Assembly: GCA_023244815.1 (NCBI GenBank)
Contig: JAHFLQ010000002.1
Coordinates: 6,994-70,993, forward strand
DNA from: a bacterium
GTDB lineage: Bacteria; Patescibacteriota; Minisyncoccia; UBA6257; WO2-44-18
Length of the DNA stretch: 64,000 nucleotides
Direction of reading: 5' to 3'
The notes under the pieces were generated by a model that was not told the origin of the DNA, searched no databases, and worked only from the letters and a program-made list of their open reading frames with translations. The translations under genes were made by a program, and so were the position numbers. Of this stretch, positions 24,869 to 51,600 are shown piece after piece (position 1 is the first letter of the stretch; each line of letters starts with the position of its first letter).

Positions 24869-24869
24869 T

Positions 24870-25601: not shown

Positions 25602-25647
25602 GCGATTTATTGATTTTAACCGAAAATCAGGCTATCGTGAAGCCATA

Positions 25648-30861: not shown

Positions 30862-30904
30862 ATATAAAGAAAATGGTATGTTGCTTTAACCGTAATGTCA
30901 AAAA

Positions 30905-32281: not shown

Positions 32282-32337
32282 TTAGGTAGCCTTACTAAAA
32301 CCTAATTGCCCCTTTAAAAGTTACATATTATTATATA

Positions 32338-33111
32338 TTGGCTGGGCCTAAAAACACGATGAAATATCTCACTCCTGAAGAAATTAAAAACTCTCATAAA
32401 GACGAAGCCCACTCAATCCTAGAAAAATCCAAGAGCCAGTTGGTGCGCTTTAGTTTTGGCATTGAGTTATTTAAAAAATGTTTAGCAGACCAATTTTCCG
32501 GCAATAAAGCAATAAAAATCCTTGACCTAGGAAGCGGAAGCGGTTCTTTCGCCCGCCAATTGGCCGAAATTGGCTGCGTTAATATTTGCGGAGTAGATAT
32601 AGACGACTATCGCTCGGCCGAAGCCAAATCGATTTATAAAGAATTTAAACAGGCAGATTTGGGATGGGACAAACTACCATGGCCAGATAATACTTTTGAC
32701 ATAATTAACGCCTGGTGCGTATTGCCTCATGTAGAAAATCCATTTCACTGTGCCCGCGAGGTAAGCCGGGTTCTGAAGCCAGGCGGGATTTTCATTTTTT
32801 CATTGCCTCATCTTACCTCAAAACCGGCCATTGATTATTTCATTAAAAATAAGAATTTCGGCCAATATAAAGGTGAGAATAATCACATTATTCTTTTTAC
32901 CTACCCGATCATTAAAAAAACAATTTTAAAATATTTTGATACGGTAGATATAGCATATCCAATCAGGCCAAAAGTTTTTGAAAGGGGGGTCAAAGGAAAG
33001 ATTCGTTCTGTTGTGTATCCGCTGATTAACAAATTTTTTCCAAATGCAGGGAAGGCGTTAAGTTATCGGTGGGCCTACGAAGCCGTGTATCTGGCGCACA
33101 AAAGCTCTTAA
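32338..33111 (+). CDS. Class I SAM-dependent methyltransferase, family A copy 2
   Basis: 257 aa. ILDLGSGSGSFA and VLKPGGIFIFSLP, plus the shared WPDNTFDIINAWCVLPHVENPFH block. Confidence 0.6.
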   Translation: MAGPKNTMKYLTPEEIKNSHKDEAHSILEKSKSQLVRFSFGIELFKKCLADQFSGNKAIKILDLGSGSGSFARQLAEIGCVNICGVDIDDYRSAEAKSIYKEFKQADLGWDKLPWPDNTFDIINAWCVLPHVENPFHCAREVSRVLKPGGIFIFSLPHLTSKPAIDYFIKNKNFGQYKGENNHIILFTYPIIKKTILKYFDTVDIAYPIRPKVFERGVKGKIRSVVYPLINKFFPNAGKALSYRWAYEAVYLAHKSS

Positions 33112-33116
33112 TTAAA

Positions 33117-33139
33117 AAACCCGGTGCTGAACCGGGTTT
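33117..33139. terminator. Bidirectional hairpin terminator
   Basis: aaacccggt-gctga-accgggttt is a 9-bp stem. On the minus strand it is followed by tttttaatt. Confidence 0.6.
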
Positions 33140-34202
33140 AAGCAAGTAGTTTTTTCAACGTTTCCAAGCCCCACGTAAACTCCTCGCGGGAAAGATCCTG
33201 GACGAGTAGCAGGTGACTGTCGCGATGCGGCAAGATAATCGCCACGCCCTCTCCAGTGCGCTTCTTATCCTTGCGCATGGCTTGCCAAAGATTGTCGGTG
33301 TCAAAAAACTTGTTTTGAAGGTTCAGAAGTTCGCCATGGAACGATGGTGAGAGAATTTGCTTCACCATAAAATCAAACACCTCGCCATCAATCAATTGCC
33401 GTTTCAGTGAGACGGCGCTCGCGAAGATCATTCCCGCCACTACAGCAAGGCCGTGAGGAATCGTGAATTCCGATGCCGACTCGAGCGCGTGCCCGAAGCA
33501 GTGCCCGTAGTTAAGAAGCTTCCTTCGACCCTCGTCGAATTCGTCTTCTTCGATGTACTCCTTCTTAATAAGAAGGCTATCGTAGAGCAGGTTGGAAGGG
33601 TCGTCATTTTTCAGACGATGGGCAAGGGCCGAAAAATCGCCTAAGTTTTTAGCCTGCATCAGATGCAACTTAACAATCTCACCAAACCCGCTGAAAATTT
33701 CTTTTGGATTCAGCGTCTTAGTAAATTCATAGCTGATGAAAATTCTCTTCGGAGGATAAAAAGTGCCGACTAAGTTCTTGTACGAATCCAAGTTGAGCGA
33801 TGTTTTACTGCCGATACAGCTATCCGCCTGCGCGAGTAGCGTGGTCGGGACGTAAGTCCAATTCAGGCCGCGATACAATGCTGAAGCAACAAATCCCGTT
33901 ATGTCCTGAGTTATGCCGCCACCTACAGAGACAAAATCGGTGTTCCGCTTACAAGACTTTGTCACAAGTTCACGACATAATCTCATCGCGCTATCAACCG
34001 TTTTCTCCTCCTCTTTGGCGTCGATCAAGACTATTGAATCTGAACCGATGCTATCAAAGTGCTGGCGGTAAACATTAAAAACGTTTCTGTCGATAGCCCA
34101 AATGCCGGGTTTTTCTTTCAGTGCGTCCAAAAATCTTAGATCGTTTTCGAATGAGGCCTTGTAGGGGCCCCTGTACGACTGAATAGTAAGGCTATTTTTC
34201 AT
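33138..34202 (-). CDS. 3-dehydroquinate-synthase-like sugar-phosphate cyclase superfamily protein
   Basis: 354 aa. GGGITQDITGF is the glycine-rich NAD loop. LNYGHCFGHALE and HGLAVVAGM are metal-binding His motifs of the DHQS family. There is a GGAGG RBS upstream. Confidence 0.6.
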   Translation of the reverse strand: MKNSLTIQSYRGPYKASFENDLRFLDALKEKPGIWAIDRNVFNVYRQHFDSIGSDSIVLIDAKEEEKTVDSAMRLCRELVTKSCKRNTDFVSVGGGITQDITGFVASALYRGLNWTYVPTTLLAQADSCIGSKTSLNLDSYKNLVGTFYPPKRIFISYEFTKTLNPKEIFSGFGEIVKLHLMQAKNLGDFSALAHRLKNDDPSNLLYDSLLIKKEYIEEDEFDEGRRKLLNYGHCFGHALESASEFTIPHGLAVVAGMIFASAVSLKRQLIDGEVFDFMVKQILSPSFHGELLNLQNKFFDTDNLWQAMRKDKKRTGEGVAIILPHRDSHLLLVQDLSREEFTWGLETLKKLLA

Positions 34203-34274
34203 AAAACCTCCACCATTAGAACCCTCAACGAGCCATCTAGGTTATAGCAGGCCGTGAAATAACGGTCAATTAAA

Positions 34275-34297
34275 AACCCCGATGCAGGATCGGGGTT
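34275..34297. terminator. Hairpin terminator for the minus-strand gene 34307..35092
   Basis: aaccccgat-gcagg-atcggggtt. On the minus strand it is followed by ttttaatt. Confidence 0.6.
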
Positions 34298-34306
34298 CGT
34301 TACTGT

Positions 34307-35092
34307 CTAGAGCATTGTGCGCTTCTCAAGCATTCTGATACGCTCTTTGTCCTCAACTGAAATAACGTGGTAGTAATCGTGCTTGTTGCAAAGCCATTGG
34401 AGCTCAAATCTGTTGGCTCTCCTAAGACTCTCCGCCGCGTCCTCAAGACCCTTGGATGCGCTGAAGATAATTTTTCGGGTTTCAAAGCGATCCAACAGGT
34501 TAGCATCCACCAACTGCCTGATAAAAGGAATTGCTTCCGGCGTGATCGCTCCGCCGATCGTGGGGCTTAACTTCGCGGCCCGCGTCTTTTCGCAAATGCC
34601 CTTTGTGATCTCAAAAATTTTTTCGGAATTAATTTCTTGCCGTCCCAAATCGAGAGAGCCACAGAGATCCACTCGGCCAACCGTTATGCGCGAGAGTTGA
34701 TGCGCACCCGGAAGCGCGAGCATCCGGTCGAGGTTCTGATAAGCCTGGATCGTTTCCACATTGACGGCAAAGGCAATATCGCTCTTCGCGTCTTCCGGCA
34801 CATGCTTCGCGATAGCTTCCAAAAACTTCTGGAGCGCATACGCGCTTTCCACCATCGGAGCAACGATACCGGATACGCCGAGAGTCATCGCGTCGAAGAT
34901 ATCCCGAATCGCTTCTGGGCCGCCGATCTTCAAGACAATGCCCATTCCGCAGCGAGATGCGATCTCCTTCAGGCGCATCAGTTCATTCAGCCGCGCGCCC
35001 TCGGATTCAAATTCCGCCTTCACATCAACCGCGCCATAGTTATCGCGCAGATCAGTCAAGACCTCCACCATTTCTTTTTCAAGGCTGTTCAT
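34307..35092 (-). CDS. HpcH/HpaI-aldolase / citrate-lyase-beta-like TIM-barrel protein
   Basis: 261 aa. GIVAPMVESAYALQ resembles the PMVET motif. ITVGRVDLCGSLDLG resembles GxxDLxxxLG. There is a GGAGGG RBS upstream. Confidence 0.4.
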   Translation of the reverse strand: MNSLEKEMVEVLTDLRDNYGAVDVKAEFESEGARLNELMRLKEIASRCGMGIVLKIGGPEAIRDIFDAMTLGVSGIVAPMVESAYALQKFLEAIAKHVPEDAKSDIAFAVNVETIQAYQNLDRMLALPGAHQLSRITVGRVDLCGSLDLGRQEINSEKIFEITKGICEKTRAAKLSPTIGGAITPEAIPFIRQLVDANLLDRFETRKIIFSASKGLEDAAESLRRANRFELQWLCNKHDYYHVISVEDKERIRMLEKRTML

Positions 35093-35095
35093 TTG

Positions 35096-35824
35096 CTACC
35101 CTCCAAAGCCTCCGGTATTGTACTTCGGAAGTTCGTCATAGGCAAGTTCGGGAGAAACATTCTCCCGGGAAACACTCGGCTTGCCTTCTACCCGAAGCAC
35201 ATTGAACCAGTCGCAGAATTTTTCTTGAACCAACGCTTCTCTCCAGATAATTCCGGCAATTTCTCGCGGATCCATAAACTCGGAGGTATTGATACTCGCC
35301 GGGAAAAGCCCAGTTTTCATTCCCGCGGGATGCACAATCACGACTTTTGACCCGGGCAAATCCCGTTCGAACTCCAAAGCAAGCGATCGGGAAAACTGGG
35401 CCTGATACGCTTTCGTACCGGCATAGATCGCCATATCCGCACGCGCTTTCCAAACAGCGACGGACGCGATCGTAATGAGATGGAAAGGCGAGCGCAGTTT
35501 TTTCTTACGCCTCACGAATGTTTGCAAAATCCTCGTCGGTGCGTCCGCGTTGATCGCGAACATACTCGCAAGCTTCTCCGCCTGATCAAAGGGACCGTAT
35601 TCAAATTCACCGGCATTCCATACGAAAAATGAAACGTCCTTTAGAAGTTCGGCCTCCATAACTTCAATTTTCTGACAAAGAGCTTCAACGCTTTGGCGAT
35701 CGGAAAGATCTACCTGAAGTTGAGAATTTCTTCCCAATGTCACCGGATCAATACTGTGACGCTCGGCTTCTTTTACAAGCTCCAAACCCAACCCCGAGGA
35801 CCCGCCAAGAATCCACGCCTTCAT
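35096..35824 (-). CDS. Short-chain dehydrogenase/reductase (classical SDR)
   Basis: Start MKAWILGGSSGLGLEL with AAGGA 6-10 nt upstream. YAGTKAY is the YxxxK motif. Confidence 0.65.
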   Translation of the reverse strand: MKAWILGGSSGLGLELVKEAERHSIDPVTLGRNSQLQVDLSDRQSVEALCQKIEVMEAELLKDVSFFVWNAGEFEYGPFDQAEKLASMFAINADAPTRILQTFVRRKKKLRSPFHLITIASVAVWKARADMAIYAGTKAYQAQFSRSLALEFERDLPGSKVVIVHPAGMKTGLFPASINTSEFMDPREIAGIIWREALVQEKFCDWFNVLRVEGKPSVSRENVSPELAYDELPKYNTGGFGG

Positions 35825-35892
35825 TGGTTTTCCTTTCATCATTGCCCACATAATGAAACACAAAATCGATCAAAAAGGTTATACTGATACCA

Positions 35893-37236
35893 ATGAAAAC
35901 TTTATTTCTCTTCATTCCTCATTACGTTTTTACGTCCGACTTACTGCATACCAATTTTATAAAAAGTCTTTCGGAAAAATACCGGGTCGTGGTCTTTGGG
36001 CCAGTATCGTCTTCCAATTATTACCAGTCATCCAATGTGGAATATATCTCAAGGGAAGCGGAATATCCGAAGTTCTGGCTGCTTTTTACTAAAACGCTGC
36101 GCCTAAGCTTTGTCCGGGAGTTTGATAATCTAGAATATCTTAAACTTCGACGAAAGCAGAAAATTAACATGAACTGGCAGCGCTATCTCCTGCGGGGCAT
36201 AAGCTGGCTTCTTCCCCGCTCTCTTACTACTGCGAGCTTTTTCACTAAATTAGAAACATGGCTCTTGCCAAATTCCGAATCTTTTCAGAAATACGTGAAA
36301 AAATACCGCCCAAGCATCGTCCTTACCTGCACGCCAGGTTTTAACAATCTTGAAGCGGAAGCGATTATTCTCGCGAAAAAGAATGGCATCCCAACCGCCT
36401 CTATTAATTCCAGTTGGGATAATTATACTTCCAACTCTGTACAATTCCGGAGAACCGATTATTTAATTTGCTGGAACGAAGTTATGAAGAAAGAAGCGAT
36501 TAAAATCCACCGCTATCCGGAAAGTCGGGTTTTTGTTTCCGGCACTTATCGGTTCGACCACCATTTTCAGCCTCATGGCAAAGAACCAACTCGGGAGGAA
36601 TTTTTATTCAGCAAAGGCCTTGATCCGGCCCTAAAAACGCTTTGGCTCTGTACCGTACCGCCCAATACTTATCCGCCACAATATGGCGTGTGGAAAGAAA
36701 TTGTCAGAATGCGCGAAAGTGGCGAATTGGCGCAAAATGTGAACCTTTTTTTTCGCATTCACCCAAATGATGAGGCGGAGTATTATAAAGAATATCAAGG
36801 TCTGAAAAATATTCATGTTGAGCTAGCCGGCCATACCAAAGAAAAAGCTCCGGGCAGCGGTCAGAAAATAGAAATGGATGAAAAAGACCTGGACAATCTT
36901 CGCCATTCGTTTCAATACACCGATATCAATATCAACTTCCGTTCCAGTTTGAATCTAGAATCCTCGATCTACGACCAACCCTGCATTGACCTCGCGCTGG
37001 AAAATTATAGGGAGCGCTACTGGGTTGACTGGTACATTCCCCTTGTGGAAAGCGGCGGCTTAAAATTAGTCTCAACCGAAGAAGAATTGAGAAAAGCTAT
37101 CAATGATTATCTCAAAAACCCCAAATTGGATAGTTCGGGAAGAAAAAAGATATTTGATGACTATATTGGATTTCGCGATGGACTTTCATACCAAAGAAGC
37201 GTGGACGCCATCTCTAAAATTGTCACGTTAATTTAG
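35893..37236 (+). CDS. TagF-like GT-B transferase, paralog 4
   Basis: 447 aa. It is the more divergent copy. Motifs SINSSWDNYTSNS, RSSLNLESSIYDQPCIDLAL and the family C-terminus LSYQRSVDAI. Confidence 0.45.
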   Translation: MKTLFLFIPHYVFTSDLLHTNFIKSLSEKYRVVVFGPVSSSNYYQSSNVEYISREAEYPKFWLLFTKTLRLSFVREFDNLEYLKLRRKQKINMNWQRYLLRGISWLLPRSLTTASFFTKLETWLLPNSESFQKYVKKYRPSIVLTCTPGFNNLEAEAIILAKKNGIPTASINSSWDNYTSNSVQFRRTDYLICWNEVMKKEAIKIHRYPESRVFVSGTYRFDHHFQPHGKEPTREEFLFSKGLDPALKTLWLCTVPPNTYPPQYGVWKEIVRMRESGELAQNVNLFFRIHPNDEAEYYKEYQGLKNIHVELAGHTKEKAPGSGQKIEMDEKDLDNLRHSFQYTDININFRSSLNLESSIYDQPCIDLALENYRERYWVDWYIPLVESGGLKLVSTEEELRKAINDYLKNPKLDSSGRKKIFDDYIGFRDGLSYQRSVDAISKIVTLI

Positions 37237-37262
37237 GCCTCATAAAGTGTTACTATTTCCGT

Positions 37263-37958
37263 ATGCGTTATTTGAATCCAGAAGAAAGGAAAGATAGCAA
37301 AGAAGTAAGAGAGTACTTGAGTGAATTCGTATCTCAGTCTATTAAGCATAATTTTCCTCTCCAAACACTTCAGAAATACCGCCCCGAAAAAAGCACCCGC
37401 ATTTTGGACGCGGGAACCGCCAGCGGCGCTTTTCTTAAGCAACTAAGCGAGGCGGGATATGAGAATCTTTATGGGCTGGATTTGGATAATTACATTACTT
37501 CTGGCGTAGTCCTGAAAGAATTCCAAAAGGCAGATCTAAATACCGGCATTCTGCCGTTTTCCGATAATAGCTTTGATGCCATCACCGCCTGGTGTGTCAT
37601 AGCCCATTTGGAAAATCCGCACCACTTTATCCGTGAAGCCCGCCGCATCCTGAAACGAGGCGGGGTGCTGATCCTAACGCTTCCCAATATTGAATCGAAT
37701 TCCGAAAAACTGAATTTTTACAAAAAGGGTGAGTTCATCGCCTACAAACCAAACAACGATCACATTACAATTTGGACGCCGTCAATCTTAAAGAAAACAA
37801 CTTCCCTTTATTTTGATCTGATCGGCGAAGAGTATCTTGTCAAAAATAAACACTTCCGTGGCATCCAGGGCTTGGTGAGAAAGTGGCTACTGGGAAAAAA
37901 CCGGAACTTACCCCATAAGTGGGGATCGAAAGTAGCGTACTTACTAAAAAAGAAATAA
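37263..37958 (+). CDS. Class I SAM-dependent methyltransferase, family A copy 3
   Basis: 231 aa. ILDAGTASGAF and ILKRGGVLILTLP, plus the shared FSDNSFDAITAWCVIAHLENPHH block. Confidence 0.6.
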   Translation: MRYLNPEERKDSKEVREYLSEFVSQSIKHNFPLQTLQKYRPEKSTRILDAGTASGAFLKQLSEAGYENLYGLDLDNYITSGVVLKEFQKADLNTGILPFSDNSFDAITAWCVIAHLENPHHFIREARRILKRGGVLILTLPNIESNSEKLNFYKKGEFIAYKPNNDHITIWTPSILKKTTSLYFDLIGEEYLVKNKHFRGIQGLVRKWLLGKNRNLPHKWGSKVAYLLKKK

Positions 37959-38030
37959 CCATCAGATGCCAGCGGATGCTGCCGCGCAATGAGATGATCT
38001 TTCGAAAAAGTCGAAGAAACGGCCGGTTTT

Positions 38031-39380
38031 TTATTGCAATTTTTCTCCCACTATGCCGGCGAGAACATTGCCAAGCCGTTCTCCCGATTTGCCGTCCAGT
38101 TTATAGCAATAACGCTCGCGCACCAGCTGACGCCCCTCTGCGCCCAACTTCGGATCGGCAAGATGGGCCTTAAGCTGGCCGACGAATTCATCCACATTTT
38201 CGGAAAGTTTCACCCCGCCGGTCGCGATCAGATCACGGGCGCAGTCCATATCAAAGAACCAGCGCACGCTCTGGTGATACGGCATTGGCTTTGTGTTAAA
38301 ACCGATAAAAAATGCCGGCTTGTCAAAAACAATGGCATCGATGGCCAGTGTGGAAATATGAGAAACCATGGCATCGCAGTGATATAAAAGGTCAGCCAGG
38401 TGATCGTCACCAGCCATAATGTCAGCTTTTATGAAATCCTCGGCGCTTTCGGGCTCATCAATAGTAAGTGCATTAGGAATAGGCTTAAGCTTCCCAAGAT
38501 TGGTCTTCCCTACTAAAGCAGATCTGACGATAACTTGAATATTTTCAAACGGCGCGAGGGCATGAACAATCATCTCCGCAATCGGATCACTAGCATAGTA
38601 CAGGAGCGGGGGAGAAAGAATGATGGTTTTCTTCTTTGGATCAAGATTCAGTGAATGAAAAAACTCTTCACGGGGTTTCCGCCTATCTTTAACATAACGA
38701 TCATAATGGGGCACGCCTATAACATCAACTTTGCTCGGATAGACATCGCCGTACCGCACAATGTCCTCTTTCATCTTTTCCGCCTGAACCACTACATAAT
38801 CCGGAACAAAGTGATTCAATCCTTTAGTGCTTAAATTATCCCACGAACGGACCATGCCCAGAGTCGCAACTCCTCGCAAATGCGCTTCGCGCATTATCTC
38901 CACGTCTTGATGGCGAAATATATCTGTCGCAAATACCAGATCCGGATTGTATTTATTAAAATATTTTTTATAACGATCTTTTCGCGTTAATAAATAGGCG
39001 GAACGGCGCGCCAGTTGACGAATTAATTTGATCCTGCCCAGCCAGCCTATCAAAGTAAGAATCGCGGCATGAAAATATTTGCCCTGTTCCCTGATAGCGC
39101 TACGCGCTATCTTGGCAGATTCAGTGGGAGATAAAAAGAAGAAGAGTTTTGCTAAAAAAAGCTCGAAAGGCGTTTCCGGAATAGATGGCACACCTTCAAC
39201 AATCACCCGATCGGATCCAAATAGGCCCTGATAGGTTTTCTGCTTTTCTTCCGGAAGCAAGATGACAACCCTGGCCCCGGAAGAATGCGCGAATAGCGTT
39301 TTTAATATATCAGTCCCCAAAAGATTACGCCCGATCAGGCCGTAAAAAGAAGTTATAAAGATAGTTTTTTGCTTGTTCAT
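38031..39380 (-). CDS. TagF-like GT-B transferase, paralog 5
   Basis: 449 aa. MNKQKTIFITSFYGLIGRNLL...GMVRSWDNLSTKG...LADLLYHCDAMVSHISTLAIDAIVFDKPAFFIGFN...LDGKSGERLGNVL. Confidence 0.5.
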   Translation of the reverse strand: MNKQKTIFITSFYGLIGRNLLGTDILKTLFAHSSGARVVILLPEEKQKTYQGLFGSDRVIVEGVPSIPETPFELFLAKLFFFLSPTESAKIARSAIREQGKYFHAAILTLIGWLGRIKLIRQLARRSAYLLTRKDRYKKYFNKYNPDLVFATDIFRHQDVEIMREAHLRGVATLGMVRSWDNLSTKGLNHFVPDYVVVQAEKMKEDIVRYGDVYPSKVDVIGVPHYDRYVKDRRKPREEFFHSLNLDPKKKTIILSPPLLYYASDPIAEMIVHALAPFENIQVIVRSALVGKTNLGKLKPIPNALTIDEPESAEDFIKADIMAGDDHLADLLYHCDAMVSHISTLAIDAIVFDKPAFFIGFNTKPMPYHQSVRWFFDMDCARDLIATGGVKLSENVDEFVGQLKAHLADPKLGAEGRQLVRERYCYKLDGKSGERLGNVLAGIVGEKLQ

Positions 39381-39383
39381 TTA

Positions 39384-40775
39384 TTAATTTCTTTTTATAG
39401 ACGGCAATAAACCGCGAAATTGGGAAAAGAGTTGGCTGGCAAATTGCTTATCAGTTTTATCAAACCTGAATAATCGGTGAAGTTTTATTTTAAATTCGGG
39501 ATGGTGCCTGGTGAGCTGGCTATAAAGAAACCAGGTACGCTCAATATACCGTGCTAGGTATATAATTCCTATTCCGGTTATGCCAATTGTTGGCAAGAAA
39601 ATAACCGATCCCACAATGAGAATAATCAGTTCGTTTAATAAACGCCTAGCCAAAACTTTATATTCCCGCAAAGAAGCAAGTATGGTGTGAAGAATCTTGG
39701 CCACTCCATAAAGAGGCAGTCCGAAAGTCAGGGATATAAAAACCGGAATAGCGGGTGTGTATTTTGGGAAAATAAAAACCACTAAAGGCGGGACAGCAAC
39801 GACGCTTATGATCAGAAACGCGCTACCTATCCAAAACACGTACTTCACCGCTACTTTGGAAATATAGGCCAGCTCATCTAGCTTATCAGCCTTCAGCGCC
39901 AAAATAGGCTTTATTCCGGAGAGAGGCATAAAATCTTGTATAAAAGCTACTAGGCTTAGAGACAAAGAATATAATCCAACTCCTTCGGTATTCACAAAAA
40001 AGTTAATGAGCCACGGAGTTATATCTTGTAAGATTTCTTTCATTCCAAAAATCGCGAAAATTCTTGGGCCGTGATTTTTCACCATGGGAATCATCAGAGG
40101 CTCCGGCGCTGACTGAACATTTCTAAAGGCTTTCTGATACATTTTAATAAAAATAAAAATTGAGGAGGCAAAAGTAGCAATGCCCTCTGCGACAACGTGG
40201 GCAATGAAAACTTCCGTGATCGTGAACCGATGCAGTAGTAAAAACCCTATGATCAGGGCAAGTTTGATAAATTCTCTAAATGCCGAAACGCCTTGCTGGC
40301 TAAAAGAAACAACAGATTGCAAGAATATCGATATTAGAGATTGAAAAGAGCTGGTTAGCAATAAAATGCTGGCCCATTTAATTAAGATAGATATATCCTT
40401 GCCGTAAAAATTGGCTACGATATCGGACCCAAAAAAGACCGCGGCGGCCATAAGCGCGCCGGCTGCTAATTTAAAAAAAATGTTTTCTTTAAAGAGTTTC
40501 TTGGCAAGATCCGGCCTTTGGAGATTAAAATAGCGCCGCATATCCAGAGTGACTAAACCGTCAAAGAAATTAATGCCGATCCCTCGCAAAATAGAAATAA
40601 AAGATAAGATAAGCTGGTAGAGTCCGAAGGAAAACACGCTCAGCGTGCTGATAATAAAATAAGAATTAACTAAGGTTATGCCTGTTTCTAGGGCGCCAAA
40701 CACTCTCTTCGCAGATTCCGCCCTAAAAAAATAGTGCGCTAAAGGCTTTGTTTGGTCTTTCTGGCCTACAATCAT
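39384..40775 (-). CDS. Wzx-like oligosaccharide/polysaccharide flippase (MOP superfamily)
   Basis: 463 aa with about 12-14 TM helices and the typical polysaccharide-biosynthesis-protein topology. It lies within the glycan locus. Confidence 0.55.
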   Translation of the reverse strand: MIVGQKDQTKPLAHYFFRAESAKRVFGALETGITLVNSYFIISTLSVFSFGLYQLILSFISILRGIGINFFDGLVTLDMRRYFNLQRPDLAKKLFKENIFFKLAAGALMAAAVFFGSDIVANFYGKDISILIKWASILLLTSSFQSLISIFLQSVVSFSQQGVSAFREFIKLALIIGFLLLHRFTITEVFIAHVVAEGIATFASSIFIFIKMYQKAFRNVQSAPEPLMIPMVKNHGPRIFAIFGMKEILQDITPWLINFFVNTEGVGLYSLSLSLVAFIQDFMPLSGIKPILALKADKLDELAYISKVAVKYVFWIGSAFLIISVVAVPPLVVFIFPKYTPAIPVFISLTFGLPLYGVAKILHTILASLREYKVLARRLLNELIILIVGSVIFLPTIGITGIGIIYLARYIERTWFLYSQLTRHHPEFKIKLHRLFRFDKTDKQFASQLFSQFRGLLPSIKRN

Positions 40776-41536
40776 TTCGCCGCACGTTTCTGCTTTAATA
40801 ATCCTGCTACTATTTCCAAATCCCGCGGCTCATCAATATCCACCGCTGTTTTGGGATCGGAAATTACCGCGCCAATCGGCCCGGCGAATACGGCCCTCAC
40901 TCCTCGTTTTATATTTTTTGCCCAAATAGCATCCACGGCACCATTATGGAAATAAACTTTCGACAATTTCTGTCTTGGCACGTCATTGCCCCATTTGGCA
41001 AAATCCACTCGAGATACAAATTCCGGCAAAAGCGAGTGCAGTCTGTTTGTTTGTTTATCGACTATCCACATCCGGTAGGGATGCTGGTCCGGTTTTGCTA
41101 CTGTCCTGACCATGCTAAAATTTCCCTTTTTTAAAACCTTAATTACTTTATCAATGTCGCTCGCCGGACGAAGCGGCGAGGTAGCCTTGATAATCACGAC
41201 AATTTCCGGCTGCCAGCCGCGGTGTTTTTCCAACCAAGCCAAAGCGTGTTGCTGATATTCGATTTCGGCAGAAAATTTTTCCGCGGTATTGCTTGGGCGT
41301 AAAAATGGCACGTCAGCGCCTAGGCGCTTCGCCACCTTGGCAATTTTCGGGCTGTCCGTAGAAACAATAAAGGCGTCTAGAAGTTTGGACTTCTGAGCTT
41401 CCTGGATTGAATAGTAGATGAGGGGCTTGCCGCCAACATCTGCTATATTTTTGTACCGGATGCTGGTTGATCCGCCGCGAGCCGGAATAATGCCTAATAT
41501 CTTTACCTTATGCGGACTAGTTTCTCTCATATACAA
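40772..41536 (-). CDS. CMP-sugar cytidylyltransferase (NeuA/KdsB family), paralog 4
   Basis: 254 aa. VKILGIIPARGGSTSIRYKNI. Same CTP-transferase-3 family as the tandem trio at 3669-5824. Confidence 0.7.
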   Translation of the reverse strand: MYMRETSPHKVKILGIIPARGGSTSIRYKNIADVGGKPLIYYSIQEAQKSKLLDAFIVSTDSPKIAKVAKRLGADVPFLRPSNTAEKFSAEIEYQQHALAWLEKHRGWQPEIVVIIKATSPLRPASDIDKVIKVLKKGNFSMVRTVAKPDQHPYRMWIVDKQTNRLHSLLPEFVSRVDFAKWGNDVPRQKLSKVYFHNGAVDAIWAKNIKRGVRAVFAGPIGAVISDPKTAVDIDEPRDLEIVAGLLKQKRAAK

Positions 41537-41562: not shown

Positions 41563-43719
41563 CTAAATTGTCACCGATTTAAGGCAATCCGCGAGACGGA
41601 TCACTAGAGTTGCCAGACTATGCTTTTCGACGATAAGCGCGCGCATTGTTTCTGATATTTTACCAACTTCTACCAATGGTTTTTTAATAAATGCCGTTAT
41701 TTTTCCCGCCAAATCTTTATAGTTATTTTCTTCAAACATTAATTGTCCGACCAAATTTTCCGGGAAAATATCCAAAAACGCCTTATTGCTCACAATTGCC
41801 GGCAAACCACAGGCCATGGCTTCCAGTGTGCTTTTGTCGAAACTTCCGGTATCGGTGAGATTAATAAATAAGTCATACTGATTGTAAATTCCCGGAGTTG
41901 CATAATTAGGCACCGACGAAAGGAATTTTACCCGATCGAATATGCCAAGGTCGGTCGCCAATTTTTTGATTTCTTCATAATACGCAGTCTCTATTGGCTT
42001 GCCCGGCGTTGGCTCGCCTAAAATTGTTAGCGAAGCATTGTCGGTATGATACAGAGCGGCAAAAGCCCGAAGCAAAACATCAACGTGCTTCACTGGCGCG
42101 ATTCTCCCTAAAAACAATATCTTGAATCCTGAATCTTGAATCGTGAATCGTGAATCTCCGAACGGCTTAAACCGCTCTGTATCAATTCCCTGTTGCAACA
42201 CTTCAAGTTTCCTGCTCTGAAATGGATATGCCAAACGTACCGAAGTGACAATTTTATCCGGAAAAATCGCCGCGAGTTTTAGTTTCCATGTACCACGATA
42301 ATGGGCATACCAGAAAACCACGCGCCTGCCCAGTAATCTCCACAGCCAGCCGGCTAAAATTAAATACTCCGGATTCATGTGTACGAAAACCACGTCATAA
42401 TCATTTCTAAGACGCCAAACATATCTATAAAAATTAATCAGGTATTTTAATCTACCGGCATTGGATTCTTTGCCCAGAGAATGAGTTGCCACGTTGGGCG
42501 GTAAATTAGTCCGGCCACGGTAAAGGCAGATCACATGCACTTTGTCGAACTTTCCCGCTAAACCGGCAACCCATTGGTGATAAACACCTAAAACATCGTC
42601 GTCCAGATCCAATTTTTGGGTGATAAACAGTAATTTTTTAAACTTTTCTAGTTTTAAAGAATTCGCGTAAGCCGTTAGATATTCCTGCTTGCTAGGCAAA
42701 TTTTTTATAACTTCCTTTTGCTTGTTAACTAATTCCTGTCGCTCCTTAAAATCTCCGATAAGACTCTGCACGGCAGATGCCACCGCTTGTCGATCGCCAA
42801 CTGGCACTACTTTTCCTATCGCCACACCCACGTCGGTCATCACGACCGGGACGGCGGCTATCGCGGCCTCTACTGCCACGCGGCCATAGCCTTCATAATT
42901 AGAGGTCAGTAAAAATAAATCCGCGTTTTTGTAGTAGCTCGCGAGATCATCATTATACGGCTTAATGACAACATTATTCTGTAGTCGGTAATTGGTAATT
43001 AGTAATTGGAGTTTTCTACGCTCTGGCCCATCCCCAACAATCACTAGCCGTAATTTTGGATTTTCTTTGACTAAATCAGCCATGGCCTCAATTGCTAGGC
43101 CAATGTTTTTCTCTCTGGTAAGCCGGGACGCCATCAGTATTAAAAAATCTTGGCCGTTACCGGCTTTTACGTTTTGAATCCCAACAAGGTCGGTAAAGAT
43201 TGGCAAGGTGGTGATTTTCTCCTCCCCAGTTACTGTTCGTTTAATCAAAGATTTTTTTATACGATCGGAAACTACTCGTACGCCATCCGCTTTTGGCAAA
43301 ATCCTTTTCGCAATCCATATGCGCAACCGGTTTTTGAAAGATTCGCCCGCAAAATAAGGACTTAAAAAATCCGTATGGACCTGAAGCTGAAGAGGCGCCT
43401 TGAACTGACGGGCTAATCGGTAGGCGATCCAGCCGTTTTCAAATGGATCCTGCGCGGTAACTACCCATTGGCCACCAGATTTTAGCAATCGTTCACCTAT
43501 CCCATAAGCAGTCCAAAGTGCCCAGAACTTGAATCTGGAATCGGTAGGGTGCGCGACGGCATTTTCTGATATTAAATCTTCTGTTTTGCCAAAATCCTTC
43601 GCGGTCAGAACAATAATATGCAGCTCGTCGAAATACTGACTGTATTCCCGCATTCTCTTTCTTGCTTCCGAATTTTCTCGCAGAATATTTTCATCTGTAG
43701 AAAGCATTAACACTTTCAT
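41563..43719 (-). CDS. Double-module GT4 glycosyltransferase (two GT-B units in one 718-aa polypeptide)
   Basis: Module 1 has VIVGDGPERRKLQLLITNYRLQ...EGYGRVAVEAAIAAVPVV. Module 2 has ILFLGRIAPVKHVDVLL...FDKSTLEAMACGLPAIVS. It contains two heptamer tracts. Confidence 0.65.
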   Translation of the reverse strand: MKVLMLSTDENILRENSEARKRMREYSQYFDELHIIVLTAKDFGKTEDLISENAVAHPTDSRFKFWALWTAYGIGERLLKSGGQWVVTAQDPFENGWIAYRLARQFKAPLQLQVHTDFLSPYFAGESFKNRLRIWIAKRILPKADGVRVVSDRIKKSLIKRTVTGEEKITTLPIFTDLVGIQNVKAGNGQDFLILMASRLTREKNIGLAIEAMADLVKENPKLRLVIVGDGPERRKLQLLITNYRLQNNVVIKPYNDDLASYYKNADLFLLTSNYEGYGRVAVEAAIAAVPVVMTDVGVAIGKVVPVGDRQAVASAVQSLIGDFKERQELVNKQKEVIKNLPSKQEYLTAYANSLKLEKFKKLLFITQKLDLDDDVLGVYHQWVAGLAGKFDKVHVICLYRGRTNLPPNVATHSLGKESNAGRLKYLINFYRYVWRLRNDYDVVFVHMNPEYLILAGWLWRLLGRRVVFWYAHYRGTWKLKLAAIFPDKIVTSVRLAYPFQSRKLEVLQQGIDTERFKPFGDSRFTIQDSGFKILFLGRIAPVKHVDVLLRAFAALYHTDNASLTILGEPTPGKPIETAYYEEIKKLATDLGIFDRVKFLSSVPNYATPGIYNQYDLFINLTDTGSFDKSTLEAMACGLPAIVSNKAFLDIFPENLVGQLMFEENNYKDLAGKITAFIKKPLVEVGKISETMRALIVEKHSLATLVIRLADCLKSVTI
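42124..42158. repeat. Tandem heptanucleotide tract (GAATCNT) x5 inside a coding sequence
   Basis: gaatcct gaatctt gaatcgt gaatcgt gaatctc. In frame on the minus strand it encodes GDSRFTIQDSGFK. Confidence 0.9.
42981..43008. repeat. Tandem heptanucleotide tract (GTAATTR) x3, plus one degenerate unit, inside a coding sequence
   Basis: gtagtcg gtaattg gtaatta gtaattg. It encodes LQLLITNYRL. Confidence 0.9.
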
Positions 43720-43721
43720 TG

Positions 43722-44360
43722 CTATTTGGACAACTTTTCCAGTACAAAAAAATAATGATAGTGGTTCAACACCGGCCGAACCTCTTTCAATACTGTAAAG
43801 TATTGTTTTAAAACACGGCGAACTTTAGATAAGGAATATTTCCAGGCATCAATCTCCCAATAATGCTGGCCAGAAACTTTAATGCCGCCGAACTTCAGCG
43901 GCATTCTGACAAAGAAATCTAGAAACGACTTCTTAAACAAAGTCCGGACACCGGGGAAGCGCAAGGCCACCTCCCAACCGCTGGATTTATAAGGCAAAGA
44001 TAATACGATGTATCTTGAACTGACGCGCTTAAGTTCGGAGAGCGCTTTGGGCAAATCTTCAAACGGAATGTGTTCCAGAATCTCAAACGCCGTAACCGTC
44101 TCAAATTCGCCGTCGCGAAACGGTAAATTACGCACATCGGCCACCACATCTGGATTCAGATTCTTGTCAAAATCGCAGGTAGTAACCAAACCCCCCAACT
44201 TTTTCAGATAATCGGAAAAAGTGCCATTGCCCTTCCCAAGCTCCAAAACATTTTTAGGATTTAAGCCGGTCGTCAGATCAATCTGATAAAAATAGGAAAT
44301 AAACCGGTTTAGATCGTCATATTTCTTAACAAAATAATGTTTTTTATCTACCTGAGGCAT
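43722..44360 (-). CDS. Class I SAM-dependent methyltransferase
   Basis: 212 aa. VLELGKGNGTFS is motif I and RYIVLSLP is motif II. Confidence 0.55.
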   Translation of the reverse strand: MPQVDKKHYFVKKYDDLNRFISYFYQIDLTTGLNPKNVLELGKGNGTFSDYLKKLGGLVTTCDFDKNLNPDVVADVRNLPFRDGEFETVTAFEILEHIPFEDLPKALSELKRVSSRYIVLSLPYKSSGWEVALRFPGVRTLFKKSFLDFFVRMPLKFGGIKVSGQHYWEIDAWKYSLSKVRRVLKQYFTVLKEVRPVLNHYHYFFVLEKLSK

Positions 44361-46590
44361 GGCTTATTAATTCTACTAAATTATTAACCGTTCGTTCTAT
44401 TGAAAACTTCCCTGCTTTCTTCTTGGCATTTTCAGTAATGGACTCCCGGAATAACGGGTCGGAATCAATTTTTTTGATCGCGGCGATAATTTGTTCCTTA
44501 TTGTTAGGCTGCACAATAATGCCCTCCCTGCCATCCTCTATAAGTTCCGGAATGCTGCCGATCTTTGTGGCAACTATTGGCACACCCGCGTTCATCGCTT
44601 CCACTACTTGAAAAGAAAAGCTCTCAAAAGAAGTGTTCAGCACAAAAACCGACGCTTTCGATAAATATTTTTCCAATTCTTCTCTTGAGACAGCACCGGC
44701 TAATTGAATTTGATCTTGTAATTGGTAATTAGTAATTAGTAATTGGAGATTCGCCCGCTCCGGTCCGTCCCCAACAATCACCAGGCGCCAATCCGGTAAT
44801 TCTTTCATTATTTCTATTAAAACATCGAACCCTTTCCATGGAACCAACCTTCCAGCTGAAAGAATAGTTTTGTCTTTGCTTGCTACTTGCTGCCCACTGC
44901 TTGCTAATAAATTGATACCATTATAAATTACCTGAACCTTTTCCGGATTTTTTACCCAACCGCCAACAAGCTGTTGAAAATACTTGCTTGGCGTAATAAC
45001 AAGATCGGCTTGGCCAACTACAAATTTTTGAATTTTTCTCAAAAATTCCACTTTCAGACCATATTTATTTTTCTGAAAATCATCTATCGTATCTTTCACT
45101 CCAAATCTTTGCGCGGACTGCTCCCAGGCATAGTCACCAGCCACACGGATAAAGAATTTCTTACCTCTTAACCGCGCCGCGATTAAAGCCGGCAAGCCAA
45201 CGCTAGCGGGGTCTTGGGCATAAACAAAATCAAAGCCCTTTATTAATTTCCAGCAATTCCAAAAGTAGTATAGATGGCGAATAATTTTTGGTTTCTTCCT
45301 AAAATCGGTAAACGCCAAATGGCCCACCAAAAATCTACGCTTCGGCAACTCCTCTTCCAGCAGCTTAGTGTAGGTCGCTGGCCCGCCTATGTCCGGCGGA
45401 TAGATTCCGGTGGCAATCAAAATCCGATTTGTGGGCTGTAGGCTGTGCACTGTAAGCCTTTCAAAAAGGCTATTCATTTTTGAGGCAATACCGTCCCAAG
45501 AATAATTTTCCCGAACCAGCCTTTGGCCGTTTTGAGCGATTCTTTCCGCCAACTCCTGATCAGCGAAAAGTAAACTTATTTTTTCCGATAAATCTTTTGG
45601 GTTATCTATTGCACAAAAAAGGCCAGTGGCGCGATCTTTTAAAAAATCCGGTATGCCGCCAACTGGCGTACCAATCACCGGCAAACCGGCCGCCATCGCT
45701 TCCAGAAAAGAACTGCCCAGTCCCTCGGAGCGGGAGGCTCTTACAAAAAAATCGGCTTTTGCTAGATACTCCGGAACTTTTTCTGGATCTAGGTGGCCAA
45801 AAAACTTGACCCGATCCGCTACGCCCAACTCCGCCGCAAGTTTTTTCAACCCTTCCTCTTCGGGACCGCCGCCCAAAATTAGTAATTGGTAATTGGTAAT
45901 TGGTAATTGAGCGGCCGCTCTGATTAAAATATCCACTCCATTTTTATGAACCAATCGCGAAGTGGTGATAATAACTGGGCCGGCAATTTTTGACTTATCA
46001 TTTTTAACTTTTAATTTATCCAGAGCTACTCCATTCGGCACTACCTCGATTGGACAGCGCGCGCCATGGCGCCGAGCAAAATCGGCAAGATAATTACTGA
46101 TAGCTTGGATATGGTCCGCTTTTCTGAAAATCCAACGCCAAAATGGATAAAAAATGCCTACCCGTTTTAAAATATAGATTTCGGAATCTCCCTCCTGAAG
46201 CGTCAGCAAAAATGGAACTTCCGGATGCCGTAGTTTAAATAATAGCGCTGACAGACCGGCATAAGCCGCCATTATGCTCCAAATCGCTTTAAAAGGCTTT
46301 TGTTTATGAATACGCTCTGCCGCGCGCCAGGCCAGGAAAACATAAATAAGCTTTGAAAAAAACCCGCCATAATATTGGCCATCCTTTCTGCCCGCTCCAA
46401 GACGAACGACCGAGATATTGGCATCGTTCTCTATGTCCGGCCAGCGGGCGTCAAATTTTTTAGTTAAAATTATAAATTCAGTCTTGGAAACATGTCTGGC
46501 AATTTCCCGCACAGCGACCTCTGCTCCTCCTACAAAAGGCGCGTAAGCAAGACTAAAAACCGCAATCCCTTCCTTGCGCGAAGAAATCAT
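44344..46590 (-). CDS. Double-module GT4 glycosyltransferase (748 aa)
   Basis: Module 1 has LLILGGGPEEEGLKKLAAELGVADRVKFFGHL...SEGLGSSFLEAMAAGLPVIGT. Module 2 has IVGDGPERANLQLLITNYQLQ...ESFSFQVVEAMNAGVPIVAT. It contains two heptamer tracts. Confidence 0.65.
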   Translation of the reverse strand: MISSRKEGIAVFSLAYAPFVGGAEVAVREIARHVSKTEFIILTKKFDARWPDIENDANISVVRLGAGRKDGQYYGGFFSKLIYVFLAWRAAERIHKQKPFKAIWSIMAAYAGLSALLFKLRHPEVPFLLTLQEGDSEIYILKRVGIFYPFWRWIFRKADHIQAISNYLADFARRHGARCPIEVVPNGVALDKLKVKNDKSKIAGPVIITTSRLVHKNGVDILIRAAAQLPITNYQLLILGGGPEEEGLKKLAAELGVADRVKFFGHLDPEKVPEYLAKADFFVRASRSEGLGSSFLEAMAAGLPVIGTPVGGIPDFLKDRATGLFCAIDNPKDLSEKISLLFADQELAERIAQNGQRLVRENYSWDGIASKMNSLFERLTVHSLQPTNRILIATGIYPPDIGGPATYTKLLEEELPKRRFLVGHLAFTDFRKKPKIIRHLYYFWNCWKLIKGFDFVYAQDPASVGLPALIAARLRGKKFFIRVAGDYAWEQSAQRFGVKDTIDDFQKNKYGLKVEFLRKIQKFVVGQADLVITPSKYFQQLVGGWVKNPEKVQVIYNGINLLASSGQQVASKDKTILSAGRLVPWKGFDVLIEIMKELPDWRLVIVGDGPERANLQLLITNYQLQDQIQLAGAVSREELEKYLSKASVFVLNTSFESFSFQVVEAMNAGVPIVATKIGSIPELIEDGREGIIVQPNNKEQIIAAIKKIDSDPLFRESITENAKKKAGKFSIERTVNNLVELISHASGR
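44718..44745. repeat. Tandem heptanucleotide tract (GTAATTR) x4 inside a coding sequence
   Basis: gtaattg gtaatta gtaatta gtaattg. It encodes LQLLITNYQL. Confidence 0.9.
45882..45909. repeat. Perfect tandem heptanucleotide tract (GTAATTG) x4, with a fifth degenerate unit, inside a coding sequence
   Basis: gtaattg x4 at 45882-45909, preceded by aaaatta. It encodes QLPITNYQLLIL, placed before the GGGPE motif rather than after it. Confidence 0.9.
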
Positions 46591-48629: not shown

Positions 48630-51600
48630 TTAGCTCTTGGTTAGCGTTTCAGCAACTCCGGTGTCGGTATTGCTCAAGCCTGGCACTAGGAAGCCGTCGA
48701 ACCAGTCATATGATTCAATGCTCTGACCAGTGCTAGTTGAGTTACCAGACCAGATGAAGTCGTTGTCCACCCAAGAATCGATTGCCCAAACAGTCGTAGC
48801 GAATGAGTAGCCTTTGGTTGTCCAATCATCCTGATTGTTGATGTGGAACGCGCCAATGTTGGTCGCTTCGGTATGAGTACCCGCGGAGAACGTACCATCG
48901 CCTTGCATCTTGACTGAGATACTCGTGGTGGTAGTAGCATTCGCGATGTCTCCTAGCAACTCGAAGTACTTGGTCGTACCGGCATCAATCCTGATAGCTT
49001 CTGACGTTTGGCCGCTAGAAGCCGTCGGGTTGAAGTAGACCGGGAAGTCAACGTCTGGAGAGCCGTCTTGTACCAAGCCATCACCCTGCGCGTCACCATC
49101 GTCATCGCCATCACTGGAACTGCTTATAGGCGCGGTGGTCATATCAGAGGAAGTAGAACCGAAGTCTTGGTTTGCGTTATTGCCATCGGCAATCGCGAGA
49201 CTAAACTGGTTCAATGTACCGCTGGTATTGCCGCAAGACGGGGTAACGAACGCATCCGCGTAACATTTCACCACAAAGTTGCTAACCGTCATCTGACCAG
49301 TGGCGCTCGGAGTATCGCCAACAGCCGTACCGTTAGTCGCTTTTGGCAACTCGGTTATACCGTTAACGGAGGTCGCGACGTTGAAGGTGAACTTGTACAA
49401 GCTGATGCCATTGCCGCTGGCCGGAGCAGTCACGCTAAACCTATACAAAGATTTAGATGAAGCCGATTGACCAAAGGTGTTGCTTGGCAAGGTGAGTTTA
49501 GTAACCGTCGGAACAGACCTTGCGATTCTGGCGCCGTTAGTGTTGGAATCAGAACCTCCTGAACCAACTGCCACGCCGGAAGACATACCAACTCCAGTAG
49601 CACCTCTCTGACAGCTGGTATTCACGCCGCCGGAGCAGTTGCTGGAATTGCTGGCGTCATAGTTAATGAGCGCCAAGTGACCAGGCCGCGCCGGACCGCT
49701 GGTGTAAATCCCACCGATGTCAGCCTTAACAGTCAGAAGTTTCTGACCGTTCTTAGGCACAACAACGCCGGAAAGTGTGGCGGTAGCATAATCAGTTGAA
49801 GAGAAGACCGCTTCGCCTACCTTTTGCTGTCCGACAGGAAGTGACATATCCCAAACAGTTACCTTTGTCAGGTCTGACGGGGTGTTGGACGCATAGGTAT
49901 CGGCAGAAGCAGTGGAAGTACCAAGCTGGAGGCCTAGAGTGTTGATGCTGATGTCCTCGTTCGTAGCATTGAACCGGAAGACAGCCAAAGCATTATCCGT
50001 AGATCCCGCTTGTACCCACTTCAAAGACGGACTGGATGAATCTAGAGCAAAGGCAAGGGTACCGCTGGTGGCAGCCGCTATAACACGGCCGTCATTTCCA
50101 GTAATAGCATCAGATCCATCAACGCTCTGGCCGGAAGTCATTCCAGTCGCGTTAAGAGATGCGTCAGCATCGGTAATACCCCAATTCCATTGACCGCTAG
50201 CGTTAGCACCGGAAACAAGGTTGCATTTCATAGATATCGTCTTAACTGTCCCTTTCGGAACGATTAAGCCTGTATCCAGGTTAAATGTCTTGTTAGCCGC
50301 GCTGGAATCGCTGTTGGAAGGATTGACGACATTGCCACCGGTGTTTAGAACGGTGTTGCCATCATACAACTGACAGTTGGTCAGATCATCAGCCGTATTA
50401 GACGAGCTGAAGGTATTTCTCAACTGTAAGCTGTTCACTCTAATATCTTCACCAGAACCGCTGGCATCCAATACATAGTCGGTGAACTTGTAGCCACTCG
50501 TGCCAGCAACAACTGTCTGGGCACTCGTGCTAGCATTGCTCCCCTGTTGAGTTTCTGCAGAGAGAGTGAAGGTCAAAGAAGCTGCTTTAACCGTCATTGT
50601 ACTCATCGTAACAGCACTCGCAGGAGTCGGAGTAATAGTCACGCCAGAAGTTGAGCCTCGAACAGTGGTCCAGTCAGCATTAGGAGTCGTGGAAGCGGCA
50701 ATAGTATCGTTGCTTCCAAGATCGGTGCCAACCTTACCTTTCAAGGTGTAAACGTGCCTGCCGGGGCGGAAGGTTACGGTATCGGTGAACCGAATAGCAT
50801 TATTGCCACCAGCTACACCATCAACCGGACCAGCAACCACTTTGCCAGTATCATCAACTAAAGTGATGTTTGTGACATCGTTGGTTTCCACTGAACCGCC
50901 AGTATCCGTATCGTCAATCGCGCTCATATCGAAGTTCATTGCCGCAACGGTAATGTCTTCGCCCTTGACGTCAATGATCAAACCGCCCAATGGCTGGTTT
51001 GGAAGGCTGACGGCAACGTTTTGCGCGCCAACAGTCGGAGCGTTTTGAGCGTTGATTGTACCCGCATCAATGTAGGCCTGCGAAGCGTCATAGCGAGGCT
51101 CCGCATTCTGGAATTCGCTGTCATCAGCAGTAGTCGTTGTGCCGCCTTCAGCTGAGGATGGCAGAACGTCATAGCCATAGGTCAAACCCTGAGCTTGCAA
51201 GTCCGAGTAACGGTACAAGTCAAAGTCAACCGTACGAGCGGAACCGCTAACAACATCACCCTTGACATACATTTCCTTATTAAGACCTTTTTCGATCTTA
51301 ATACCACTGCTAAATTTAGCAGTGTAATATTTGCCATCGGAGCTGACGGTAGTGTCATAGGACACACCGTCAAGAACGACTTTTACATTAGCGAGGTCGT
51401 TAAGGCTCGCTGAACCGGACTGGTTCCATTTTATTGACTTCACCAAAATATCTTCGTTGGTGCTGGCAGTTAATCTAATGCCGGAGAAAATGTAGCCCAC
51501 AGTGCCGATCTCTTTAGTCAAACCGGCGCTTGGATCATACGATCCCTTGGCAAGAGTTAAGCCACCAATAGCCAACGTGCTGTTGACCGTCATTAAGCTG

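Follow-up and report, generated by a model that had tools for sequence, protein, structure and literature searches.

The pilin-glycosylation glycosyltransferase gene pglE of Neisseria carries a 7-nucleotide (nt) coding repeat that switches the gene by frameshift; the repeat is long, variable in copy number and present once per gene. The short tandemly repeated repetitive (STRR) heptamers of heterocystous cyanobacteria consist of a few conserved units, dispersed and mostly intergenic. In neuO of E. coli K1, 5'-AAGACTC-3' repeats lie in the 5' coding region in 3-53 copies, most often 20, with 66% of 64 genomes in the OFF state and minority lengths measurable within one culture (PMC13001214). The heptanucleotide arrays of Haemophilus influenzae have 13-38 copies, are mostly located in promoters, such as the TGAAAGA repeats of hmw1A and hmw2A, and vary in number between strains; an intragenic AATTTTG array of 14 copies is also known (PMC2651432). 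Here we describe a short heptanucleotide array (the focal array) inside a double GT4 glycosyltransferase gene of an uncultivated member of the Patescibacteria that metagenomes alone have revealed, found in a stretch of 64,000 nt (assembly GCA_023244815.1, contig JAHFLQ010000002.1, positions 6,994 to 70,993; the window), which an earlier note made from the sequence alone had interpreted as a site of phase variation. We find that this tract belongs to a class of translated 7-base repeats that, in Patescibacteria, is nearly limited to GT4 genes, and that high-frequency phase variation is unsupported for it.

The focal tract is like pglE in being a 7-nt coding repeat of a glycosyltransferase; here, however, the arrays are short, fixed in length and several to a gene. 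It resembles the STRR sequences in that tandem heptanucleotide arrays, unexplained in origin, are in excess across a whole lineage, but the definition of those sequences does not cover the present class, which comprises 47 units with 80 of 84 arrays in GT4 coding sequence and four short intergenic ones, all in Patescibacteria. It resembles neuO in being a 7-nt unit inside the open reading frame (ORF) of an enzyme that modifies surface glycans, where it is translated into a 7-residue repeat and the full-length product depends on the frame (PMC13001214). The focal array differs from neuO in having 5.4 imperfect units, a fixed length and a frame that is always ON, and in lying within the fold rather than at the N terminus; the arrays do not form an N-terminal heptad (poly-psi) repeat domain of the neuO type, as they are internal (amino acids 522-534 for the focal array) and length-invariant at constrained sites. 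Like the H. influenzae simple sequence repeats it has a period of 7 and is tied to surface or glycosylation functions (PMC2651432), but the high copy number, promoter location and strain-to-strain change in number of those repeats are not seen in the focal class. The gene and the array are as follows:

41563-43719, minus strand: gene for a fused double GT4 (GT-B) glycosyltransferase of 718 amino acids (aa), recognized by its open ORF, Pfam and AlphaFold; it carries the focal array.
42119-42158, minus strand: focal heptanucleotide array, 5.4 units, with the coding strand GATTCAC GATTCAC GATTCAA GATTCAG GATTCAA GAT.

Read directly from the window, the plus strand at 42124-42158 is GAATCCT GAATCTT GAATCGT GAATCGT GAATCTC, and Tandem Repeats Finder (TRF) reports 42119-42156 with period 7, 5.4 copies, 90% matches and a score of 55, plus an alternative row of period 14. 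The five-unit GAATCNT tract described earlier is therefore real; the units had been given as gaatc(c/t/g)t, which holds for the first four, while the fifth ends in C rather than T. The units are imperfect, following the coding-strand pattern GATTCAN, and perfect repetition extends over no more than 20 nt (2.9 units), a caveat on the quality of the repeat. The array is translated as DSRFTIQDSGFKI (aa 522-534) directly ahead of LFLGRIAPVK, so that aa 521-541 of the protein read G-DSRFTIQDSGFKI-LFLGRIAP; the tract thus precedes the first C-domain strand of module 2, exactly where the earlier note had placed it relative to the ILFLGRIAP strand. That note had also called the gene a double GT4, and this is borne out by the open 718-aa ORF and by matches to Pfam PF00534 (Glycos_transf_1; 1.1e-55) in two stretches, with PF13439 and PF13579 matching too. 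Both N-domain and C-domain families, together with GRIAPVK and EGYG motifs, place the protein in GT4 (GT-B fold), and its homologs bear Patescibacteria or Parcubacteria names. The AlphaFold model (mean predicted local distance difference test (pLDDT) score 88.3) contains two pairs of Rossmann-like halves. Because residues 521-530 are its least confident block (pLDDT 53) and are modelled as coil until the strand at 532-537, the focal array is predicted to encode a flexible or disordered linker joining the N- and C-terminal Rossmann halves of module 2.

The focal tract is far beyond chance, since the two-unit motif GATTCANGATTCA (at most one mismatch) occurs six times in the window against 0.52 expected, and since four lag-7 segments with at least 18 of 21 matches are present, segments of this kind being absent at all other lags between 4 and 12 and from 100 dinucleotide shuffles. 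The focal unit also recurs near the N terminus of the same protein:

43530-43542, minus strand: two-unit mini-repeat of the focal unit (GATTCCAGATTCA), coding part of PTDSRFK near the N terminus of the 718-aa gene product.

This mini-repeat may be a chance match or a seed, because it overlaps a conserved PT[ND]S..K motif. RNA structure or a known RNA family at the focal tract was rejected, as there was no folding signal (z-score -0.57) and no Rfam match anywhere in the window. The idea of a GANTC methylation or restriction site, one of which is present in each GATTC/GAATC unit, was dropped because the sister arrays use 47 unrelated units.

The census of such arrays covered 80 Patescibacteria loci around relatives of the 718-aa gene plus the window (1.33 Mb, the loci being centred on GT4 clusters), with TRF arrays of score 40 or more and at least three copies, and with ORFs assigned to classes by means of a GT4 profile derived from the alignment of the family. 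TRF found 82 arrays of period 7, compared with 11 of period 8 and five or fewer at any other period, and codon-block shuffles yielded 0.2 at period 7. When 84 period-7 arrays were assigned to ORF classes, the first pass put 77 in GT4 ORFs, none in other coding sequences and seven outside called ORFs. Three of these seven proved to lie in GT4 frames and the other four to be short, AT-rich and truly non-coding; the notion that the non-coding arrays were OFF alleles was rejected on these grounds. In the final count 80 of 84 arrays fall within 0.36 Mb of GT4 sequence and none within 0.89 Mb of other coding sequence. Single loci held from none to more than ten arrays. A lag-7 scan with the original classes gave 56 in GT4, none in other coding sequences and seven intergenic, with three or fewer at every other lag, and a criterion normalised to four unit lengths (unit sizes 4-14) showed enrichment at size 7 alone. 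The window itself holds five arrays in three of its four GT4 ORFs, and no arrays in its GT2, glycerophosphotransferase, NeuB and epimerase genes. At the protein level, two independent sets of 120 homologs contained 92 and 110 repeats with a seven-residue period against at most 31 for other periods; 120 Lactobacillaceae GT4 proteins gave seven such repeats, i.e., background, although this set consists of close orthologs of one family and is a limited control. Plasmid-borne GT4 loci (161 kb) had no lag-7 arrays, but contain too few GT4 genes to be informative.

The earlier note had proposed a genome-wide tendency to generate 7-mer coding repeats, to be checked by their enrichment in surface or glycan genes and called into question by an equal frequency in housekeeping genes. 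The tendency is indeed lineage-wide across the 80 loci and the window, and it is confined to glycan genes and specifically to GT4; the predicted enrichment is thus found, and the absence of arrays from the other coding sequence is the opposite of an equal frequency. The class is apparently undescribed so far; a search of the literature library used found no paper linking heptanucleotide repeats with Patescibacteria or the Candidate Phyla Radiation (CPR).

Copy number in the class clusters at 4.3-4.7 units (30-33 nt), with just two arrays above 5.3 units, and the repeats seen at the protein level span 10-12 residues. The arrays are nearly always in frame and free of stops. They use 47 canonical units, which are A-rich and G-poor on the coding strand; 28 of 77 coding-strand units could form a stop against 53% expected, compared with 56 of 77 on the antisense strand. 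Inspection of some arrays by eye showed the variable seventh base to occupy the position at which a TAA, TAG or TGA would otherwise enter the frame, and the Y of ITNY and KNYE arises because the variable base avoids in-frame stops.

About nine recurrent positions of the GT4 fold, which lie on its surface, host arrays, and the units at one position differ between genomes; some related genes have four to six arrays each, all in frame. At the focal linker position an array occurs in six of 44 orthologous domains. One of these orthologs has a perfect (TCAGGAA)x5.1, with a coding unit, GAATCAG, one base off the focal unit, and the closest ortholog of the 718-aa gene (59-60% identity) has no array there. 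Segment length at sites 3 and 4 is equal with and without an array, and orthologs of a neighbouring 748-aa GT4 gene have either no array or arrays of four different units at one helix of invariant length; because segment lengths are unchanged at these constrained sites, the arrays replace sequence rather than being inserted into it. Steps of about 7 aa are limited to the free inter-module linker (site 7), where lengths cluster at 17-19, 21-25 and 28-34 aa and where the two members of one orthologous pair are exactly 7 aa (three units) apart in length. A general origin from a chance seed plus exactly three inserted units (21 nt) was consequently rejected, the lengths at sites 3 and 4 being the same with and without arrays, while it still fits the free inter-module linker.

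Array DNA is often conserved across species, with units that change in concert. Two Moranbacteria-like loci with ~67% DNA identity have one array and its borders identical across 47 nt, and in the same pair another array has kept its register and length while every unit has gone from GTKAAAA to GTCAAAT. In ten orthologous pairs the identity of the array was usually equal to or above that of the flanks (e.g., 0.89 vs 0.61). Units are shared within genomes more than expected (28 similar pairs vs 11.6, exceeded in none of 2000 permutations), and this sharing reaches non-homologous sites of one gene.

Several other arrays and insertions of the set are worth recording. Locus L039 has units CCCTATA and CCCTAAA in one gene (9405-9457 and 10048-10077), including the longest array of the set at 7.6 units; CCCTAAA is identical to the plant-type telomere repeat, probably by coincidence. 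Loci L019 (site 4 of a 742-aa GT4) and L033 (site 7 of a 765-aa GT4) have the same ~20-nt palindromic insert, CCTGCCTGCCGGTAGGCA..., in or adjoining their arrays. Larger in-frame insertions in GT4 loops were seen in P0150 (CHCEESATRQSQ...LLHFVRNDR) and in P0127, where ~50 aa contain ...EIASVASLPRNDV.

Gain or loss of one or two units in the focal array is predicted to truncate the protein at 534-548 aa, and gain or loss of three to keep the frame, giving 711 or 725 aa; the truncated product would keep module 1 intact and lose the donor-binding half of module 2. The focal array thus has one attribute of a contingency locus, that of a non-triplet repeat inside an ORF able to alter expression. 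Allele comparisons were made on consensus assemblies, in which rare length variants would be invisible. The 718-aa protein is present on five contigs from at least three samples, with identical gene DNA on the three retrieved; a look-up of the neighbouring methyltransferase returned the same five contigs and no variant, and one of the five is a strain distinguishable elsewhere in its sequence. A flank-anchored scan of Joint Genome Institute (JGI) metagenomes found no further length allele of the focal tract. In this small sample (five contigs, at least three samples, two strains), the repeat number of the focal gene does not vary between strains. Nor does the class show ON and OFF frames among genomes: none of the 84 arrays lies at a frameshift junction, and the single OFF allele, of -7 nt, is in a sister array and in read-derived data. 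The tract is also not long and near-perfect, with 2.9 perfect units and a class mode of 4.3-4.7 compared with 13-53 in known switches (PMC2651432, PMC13001214). It works like the coding and promoter heptanucleotide switches in principle alone, and lacks three of their testable defining features.

The arrays of ~45 close relatives, grouped in ten clusters at 90% identity, differ mostly by point changes, and in one case the whole array has been replaced. The single OFF allele is P0122, a frameshift: removal of one AGTTTAC from the P0099 gene reproduces the P0122 sequence for more than 40 residues past the array, and the P0099 array is of standard length in 13 + 2 assembled contigs, the two coming from a flank-anchored metagenome scan for this array. 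Low-frequency slippage is therefore demonstrated for the class, not for the focal tract. The phase-variation interpretation of the earlier note is not supported, given the identical focal gene across contigs, a copy number of ~4.6 across species, the lack of arrays at frameshift junctions and the many arrays that are more conserved between species than their flanks; lack of length polymorphism, which the note itself had named as counting against it, is what we found for the focal gene in consensus assemblies. Its further argument, that two repeats in one gene strengthen the case, does not follow, as some related genes carry four to six in-frame arrays. We conclude that the focal tract is fixed in the ON frame and is at most a weak, low-frequency switch rather than a classical contingency locus; switching at a low rate is possible.

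Two broken GT4 genes of other loci were also noted. In another Patescibacteria population a neighbouring 349-aa GT4 is broken in one of seven contigs (L095 1599-2648 vs L090 3202-4251); an array change was rejected as the cause, the break being a TCA-to-TAA nonsense mutation, which indicates that GT4 genes can be inactivated by ordinary point mutation. In L048 (8444-9530) a GT4 gene is split in two frames ~100 nt upstream of a heptamer array, the break not being at the array; this may be a pseudogene or an assembly error.

Close relatives differ in the content of their arrays, not in copy number. The clearest example in the window is a linker of the neighbouring 748-aa gene:

45418-45492, minus strand: inter-module linker (site 7) of the 748-aa gene, with two heptamer-periodic alleles between strains.

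Over ~7.6 kb the window and a second strain (ERZ27279977) are identical but for 30 differences, all of them within 45418-45492. The two alleles of this 75-nt patch (the other is at L005 2864-2949) are equal in length and both heptamer-periodic, with different units and unrelated sequences. In CACGATT AACGATG CGCGATT CATGATG, the alternative allele, the units are similar to the focal unit CACGATT. No donor copy for the patch was found in the window or in ~100 loci. Likewise, two 93%-identical genes have unrelated site-3 arrays (TGTCACA vs GTTGTAG). Short stretches imported by recombination through conserved flanking motifs may account for such swaps of content, as may a more specific process.

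On balance we lean towards the view that the focal tract is a coding heptanucleotide microsatellite, maintained by slippage and/or conversion and filtered by selection, and we hold this moderately probable. In this view replication slippage and/or short-patch conversion, the latter out-of-register or from array to array, would give rise to the periodicity and keep renewing it, and selection would pass only those versions that keep the frame, lack stops and fit the fold. As three 7-nt units give a 7-residue period, or about two helical turns, they would suit an amphipathic helix, which may explain why a unit of 7 is tolerated in helices. The focal tract could then act as a reversible frameshift site through gain or loss of one or two units. 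We infer this molecular route to periodicity, as we do the cause of the GT4 restriction and any adaptive value the arrays may have. Several observations weigh against it. A simple expansion from a seed plus three units is contradicted at the length-invariant sites; tolerance alone fails to explain why other Rossmann-fold or non-essential genes in the same loci are free of arrays; some arrays are more conserved than their flanks at the DNA level, as in the 47 nt identical in a gene pair of ~67% identity, which could point to a nucleic-acid-level function; and close relatives sometimes carry wholly different arrays at one place, which slippage alone does not yield. Consensus assemblies would, in addition, hide rare length variants.

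If the focal tract were instead a classical contingency locus, slipped-strand mispairing would often flip module 2 ON and OFF and so diversify the surface glycan under phage or host pressure. A non-triplet unit inside an ORF of a gene class typical of phase variation fits this, as does the restriction to GT4, which second-order selection for mutability predicts; in addition some sister arrays are perfect, such as the (TCAGGAA)x5.1 at the same linker of an ortholog, concerted evolution implies repeated turnover of units, a change of one or two units gives clean truncations, and one -7 nt frameshift allele exists. We nevertheless regard frequent switching as unlikely: the five contigs, which come from at least three samples and represent two strains, all have the same focal length, and the P0099 sister array is constant in 13 + 2 contigs; none of 84 arrays is at a frameshift junction, compared with 66% of neuO genomes OFF (PMC13001214); and 2.9 perfect units compare with 13-38 in hmw (PMC2651432) and 3-53, mostly 20, in neuO (PMC13001214). 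An invariant copy number across species and the presence of up to six arrays per gene, some in a helix of buried frame, also speak against a switch. It is very improbable that the repeats instead reflect protein-level selection for a peptide repeat (DS.F.I.) or a low-complexity linker that is periodic by coincidence. The terminal units do overlap a conserved F[KR]I[LI] motif, the peptide does have a 7-aa repeat (DSRFTIQ/DSGFKIL) and the linker is tolerant of change, but peptide selection cannot create a 7-nt period because each unit is read in a different frame. Shuffles give no arrays, linker peptides of orthologs are unrelated though similar in length, and the same phenomenon occurs with 47 different units, so the shuffle and lag controls have already effectively refuted this explanation.

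A dedicated function of the nucleic acid, in which 7-nt periodicity is a signal (for binding, for recombination or conversion, or as a cassette for targeted rewriting), would mean that a lineage-specific mechanism writes or exchanges arrays in GT4 genes and that translation is merely a constraint. This would account for a size of ~32 nt that does not depend on the unit and is shared by one of the four non-coding arrays, for the reuse of units at non-homologous sites within a genome or gene, and for array DNA conserved beyond its flanks. It would also account for the swap of same-length alleles within one species between kilobases of identical flank, the new allele resembling CACGATT, for the array replaced between 93%-identical genes, and for small palindromic inserts in or beside arrays. 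However, no donor for the replaced patch was found in the window and ~100 loci, up to 8-10 different units per genome weigh against recognition by a single sequence-specific reader, neither an RNA structure nor an Rfam match was found, and short imports from diverged relatives via conserved flanking motifs can explain the allelic patches; we therefore judge such a function quite unlikely. More tenuous still, and offered as speculation, is the specific proposal of a lineage-specific, length-preserving process that overwrites ~30-nt segments of the GT4 surface with 7-nt-periodic sequence and moves units between sites of the genome, a process that would differ both from slipped-strand phase variation and from diversity-generating retroelements.

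The remaining arrays of the window, among them the GTAATTR tract that the earlier note had reported in the 718-aa gene and that is also real (TRF: 42987-43009), are in the following places:

42975-43009, minus strand: AATTACY array (GTAATTR on the plus strand) of the 718-aa gene, coding LQLLITNYR in helix 234-243 of module 1 (site 4), just after VGDGPE.
44344-46590, minus strand: neighbouring double GT4 gene, 748 aa, with two AATTACY arrays and one polymorphic heptamer-periodic linker.
44716-44744, minus strand: AATTACY array of the 748-aa gene, coding QLLITNYQLQ in module 2 (site 4).
45877-45909, minus strand: AATTACC array of the 748-aa gene, coding QLPITNYQLLI in module 1 (site 6), ahead of the L.I.G.G strand.
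26972-27003, minus strand: AATTACW array, coding QLLITNYKLQ at site 4 of the single-module GT4 gene 26582-27673.

A 27-nt part of the array at 44716-44744 is identical in orthologs of two other species (L039 and L040). The only period-7-like repeat of the window outside GT4 genes is at 52967-53025, where ATTGCCG (7 nt) and ATTTGCCG (8 nt) are repeated ~3 times each, with indels, inside a 210-aa ORF that has a weak DeoR-type helix-turn-helix match and codes ...SAIRQSAILEKIRQSANRQI.

The window as a whole is a large surface-glycan region with NeuB, a CMP-sugar cytidylyltransferase, a UDP-GlcNAc 2-epimerase, several NAD-dependent epimerases/dehydratases, two or three glycerophosphotransferases, a GT2 and methyltransferases. 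The part at 22069-41536, to which the NeuB, cytidylyltransferase and UDP-GlcNAc 2-epimerase genes belong, amounts to a sialic-acid-like plus teichoic-type pathway, with two or three CDP-glycerol glycerophosphotransferase-like proteins and a dehydroquinate (DHQ) synthase-like enzyme, and is unusually rich for a small-genome bacterium. A 1275-aa protein at 48630-52457 has a weak match to a peptidoglycan-binding domain as its sole domain match. The closest relative (L007 1374-5135) preserves its synteny with the GT4 genes, and the protein may be a surface-located substrate of glycosylation.

Patescibacteria are ultra-small, mostly episymbiotic bacteria whose surface glycans probably govern host attachment and phage susceptibility. 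For the annotation of CPR glycosyltransferases, our results mean that peptides such as ITNYQL, KLKIENW, NLKSQIS and DSRFTIQ are read-outs of heptamer DNA and not protein motifs, and the arrays are ready markers for population studies at the strain and read level. The pattern of the class (one enzyme family, quantised size, in-frame, concerted and sometimes strain-variable) is not that of textbook phase variation, nor that of neutral microsatellites. Should the arrays prove to be weak frameshift switches, the biology of contingency loci would reach an uncultivated superphylum, with dozens of candidate loci per genome; if they reflect targeted rewriting or conversion, they would point to a new mutational mechanism, and overwriting targeted to GT4, if true, would give Patescibacteria a new means of diversifying or marking the genes of glycan synthesis.

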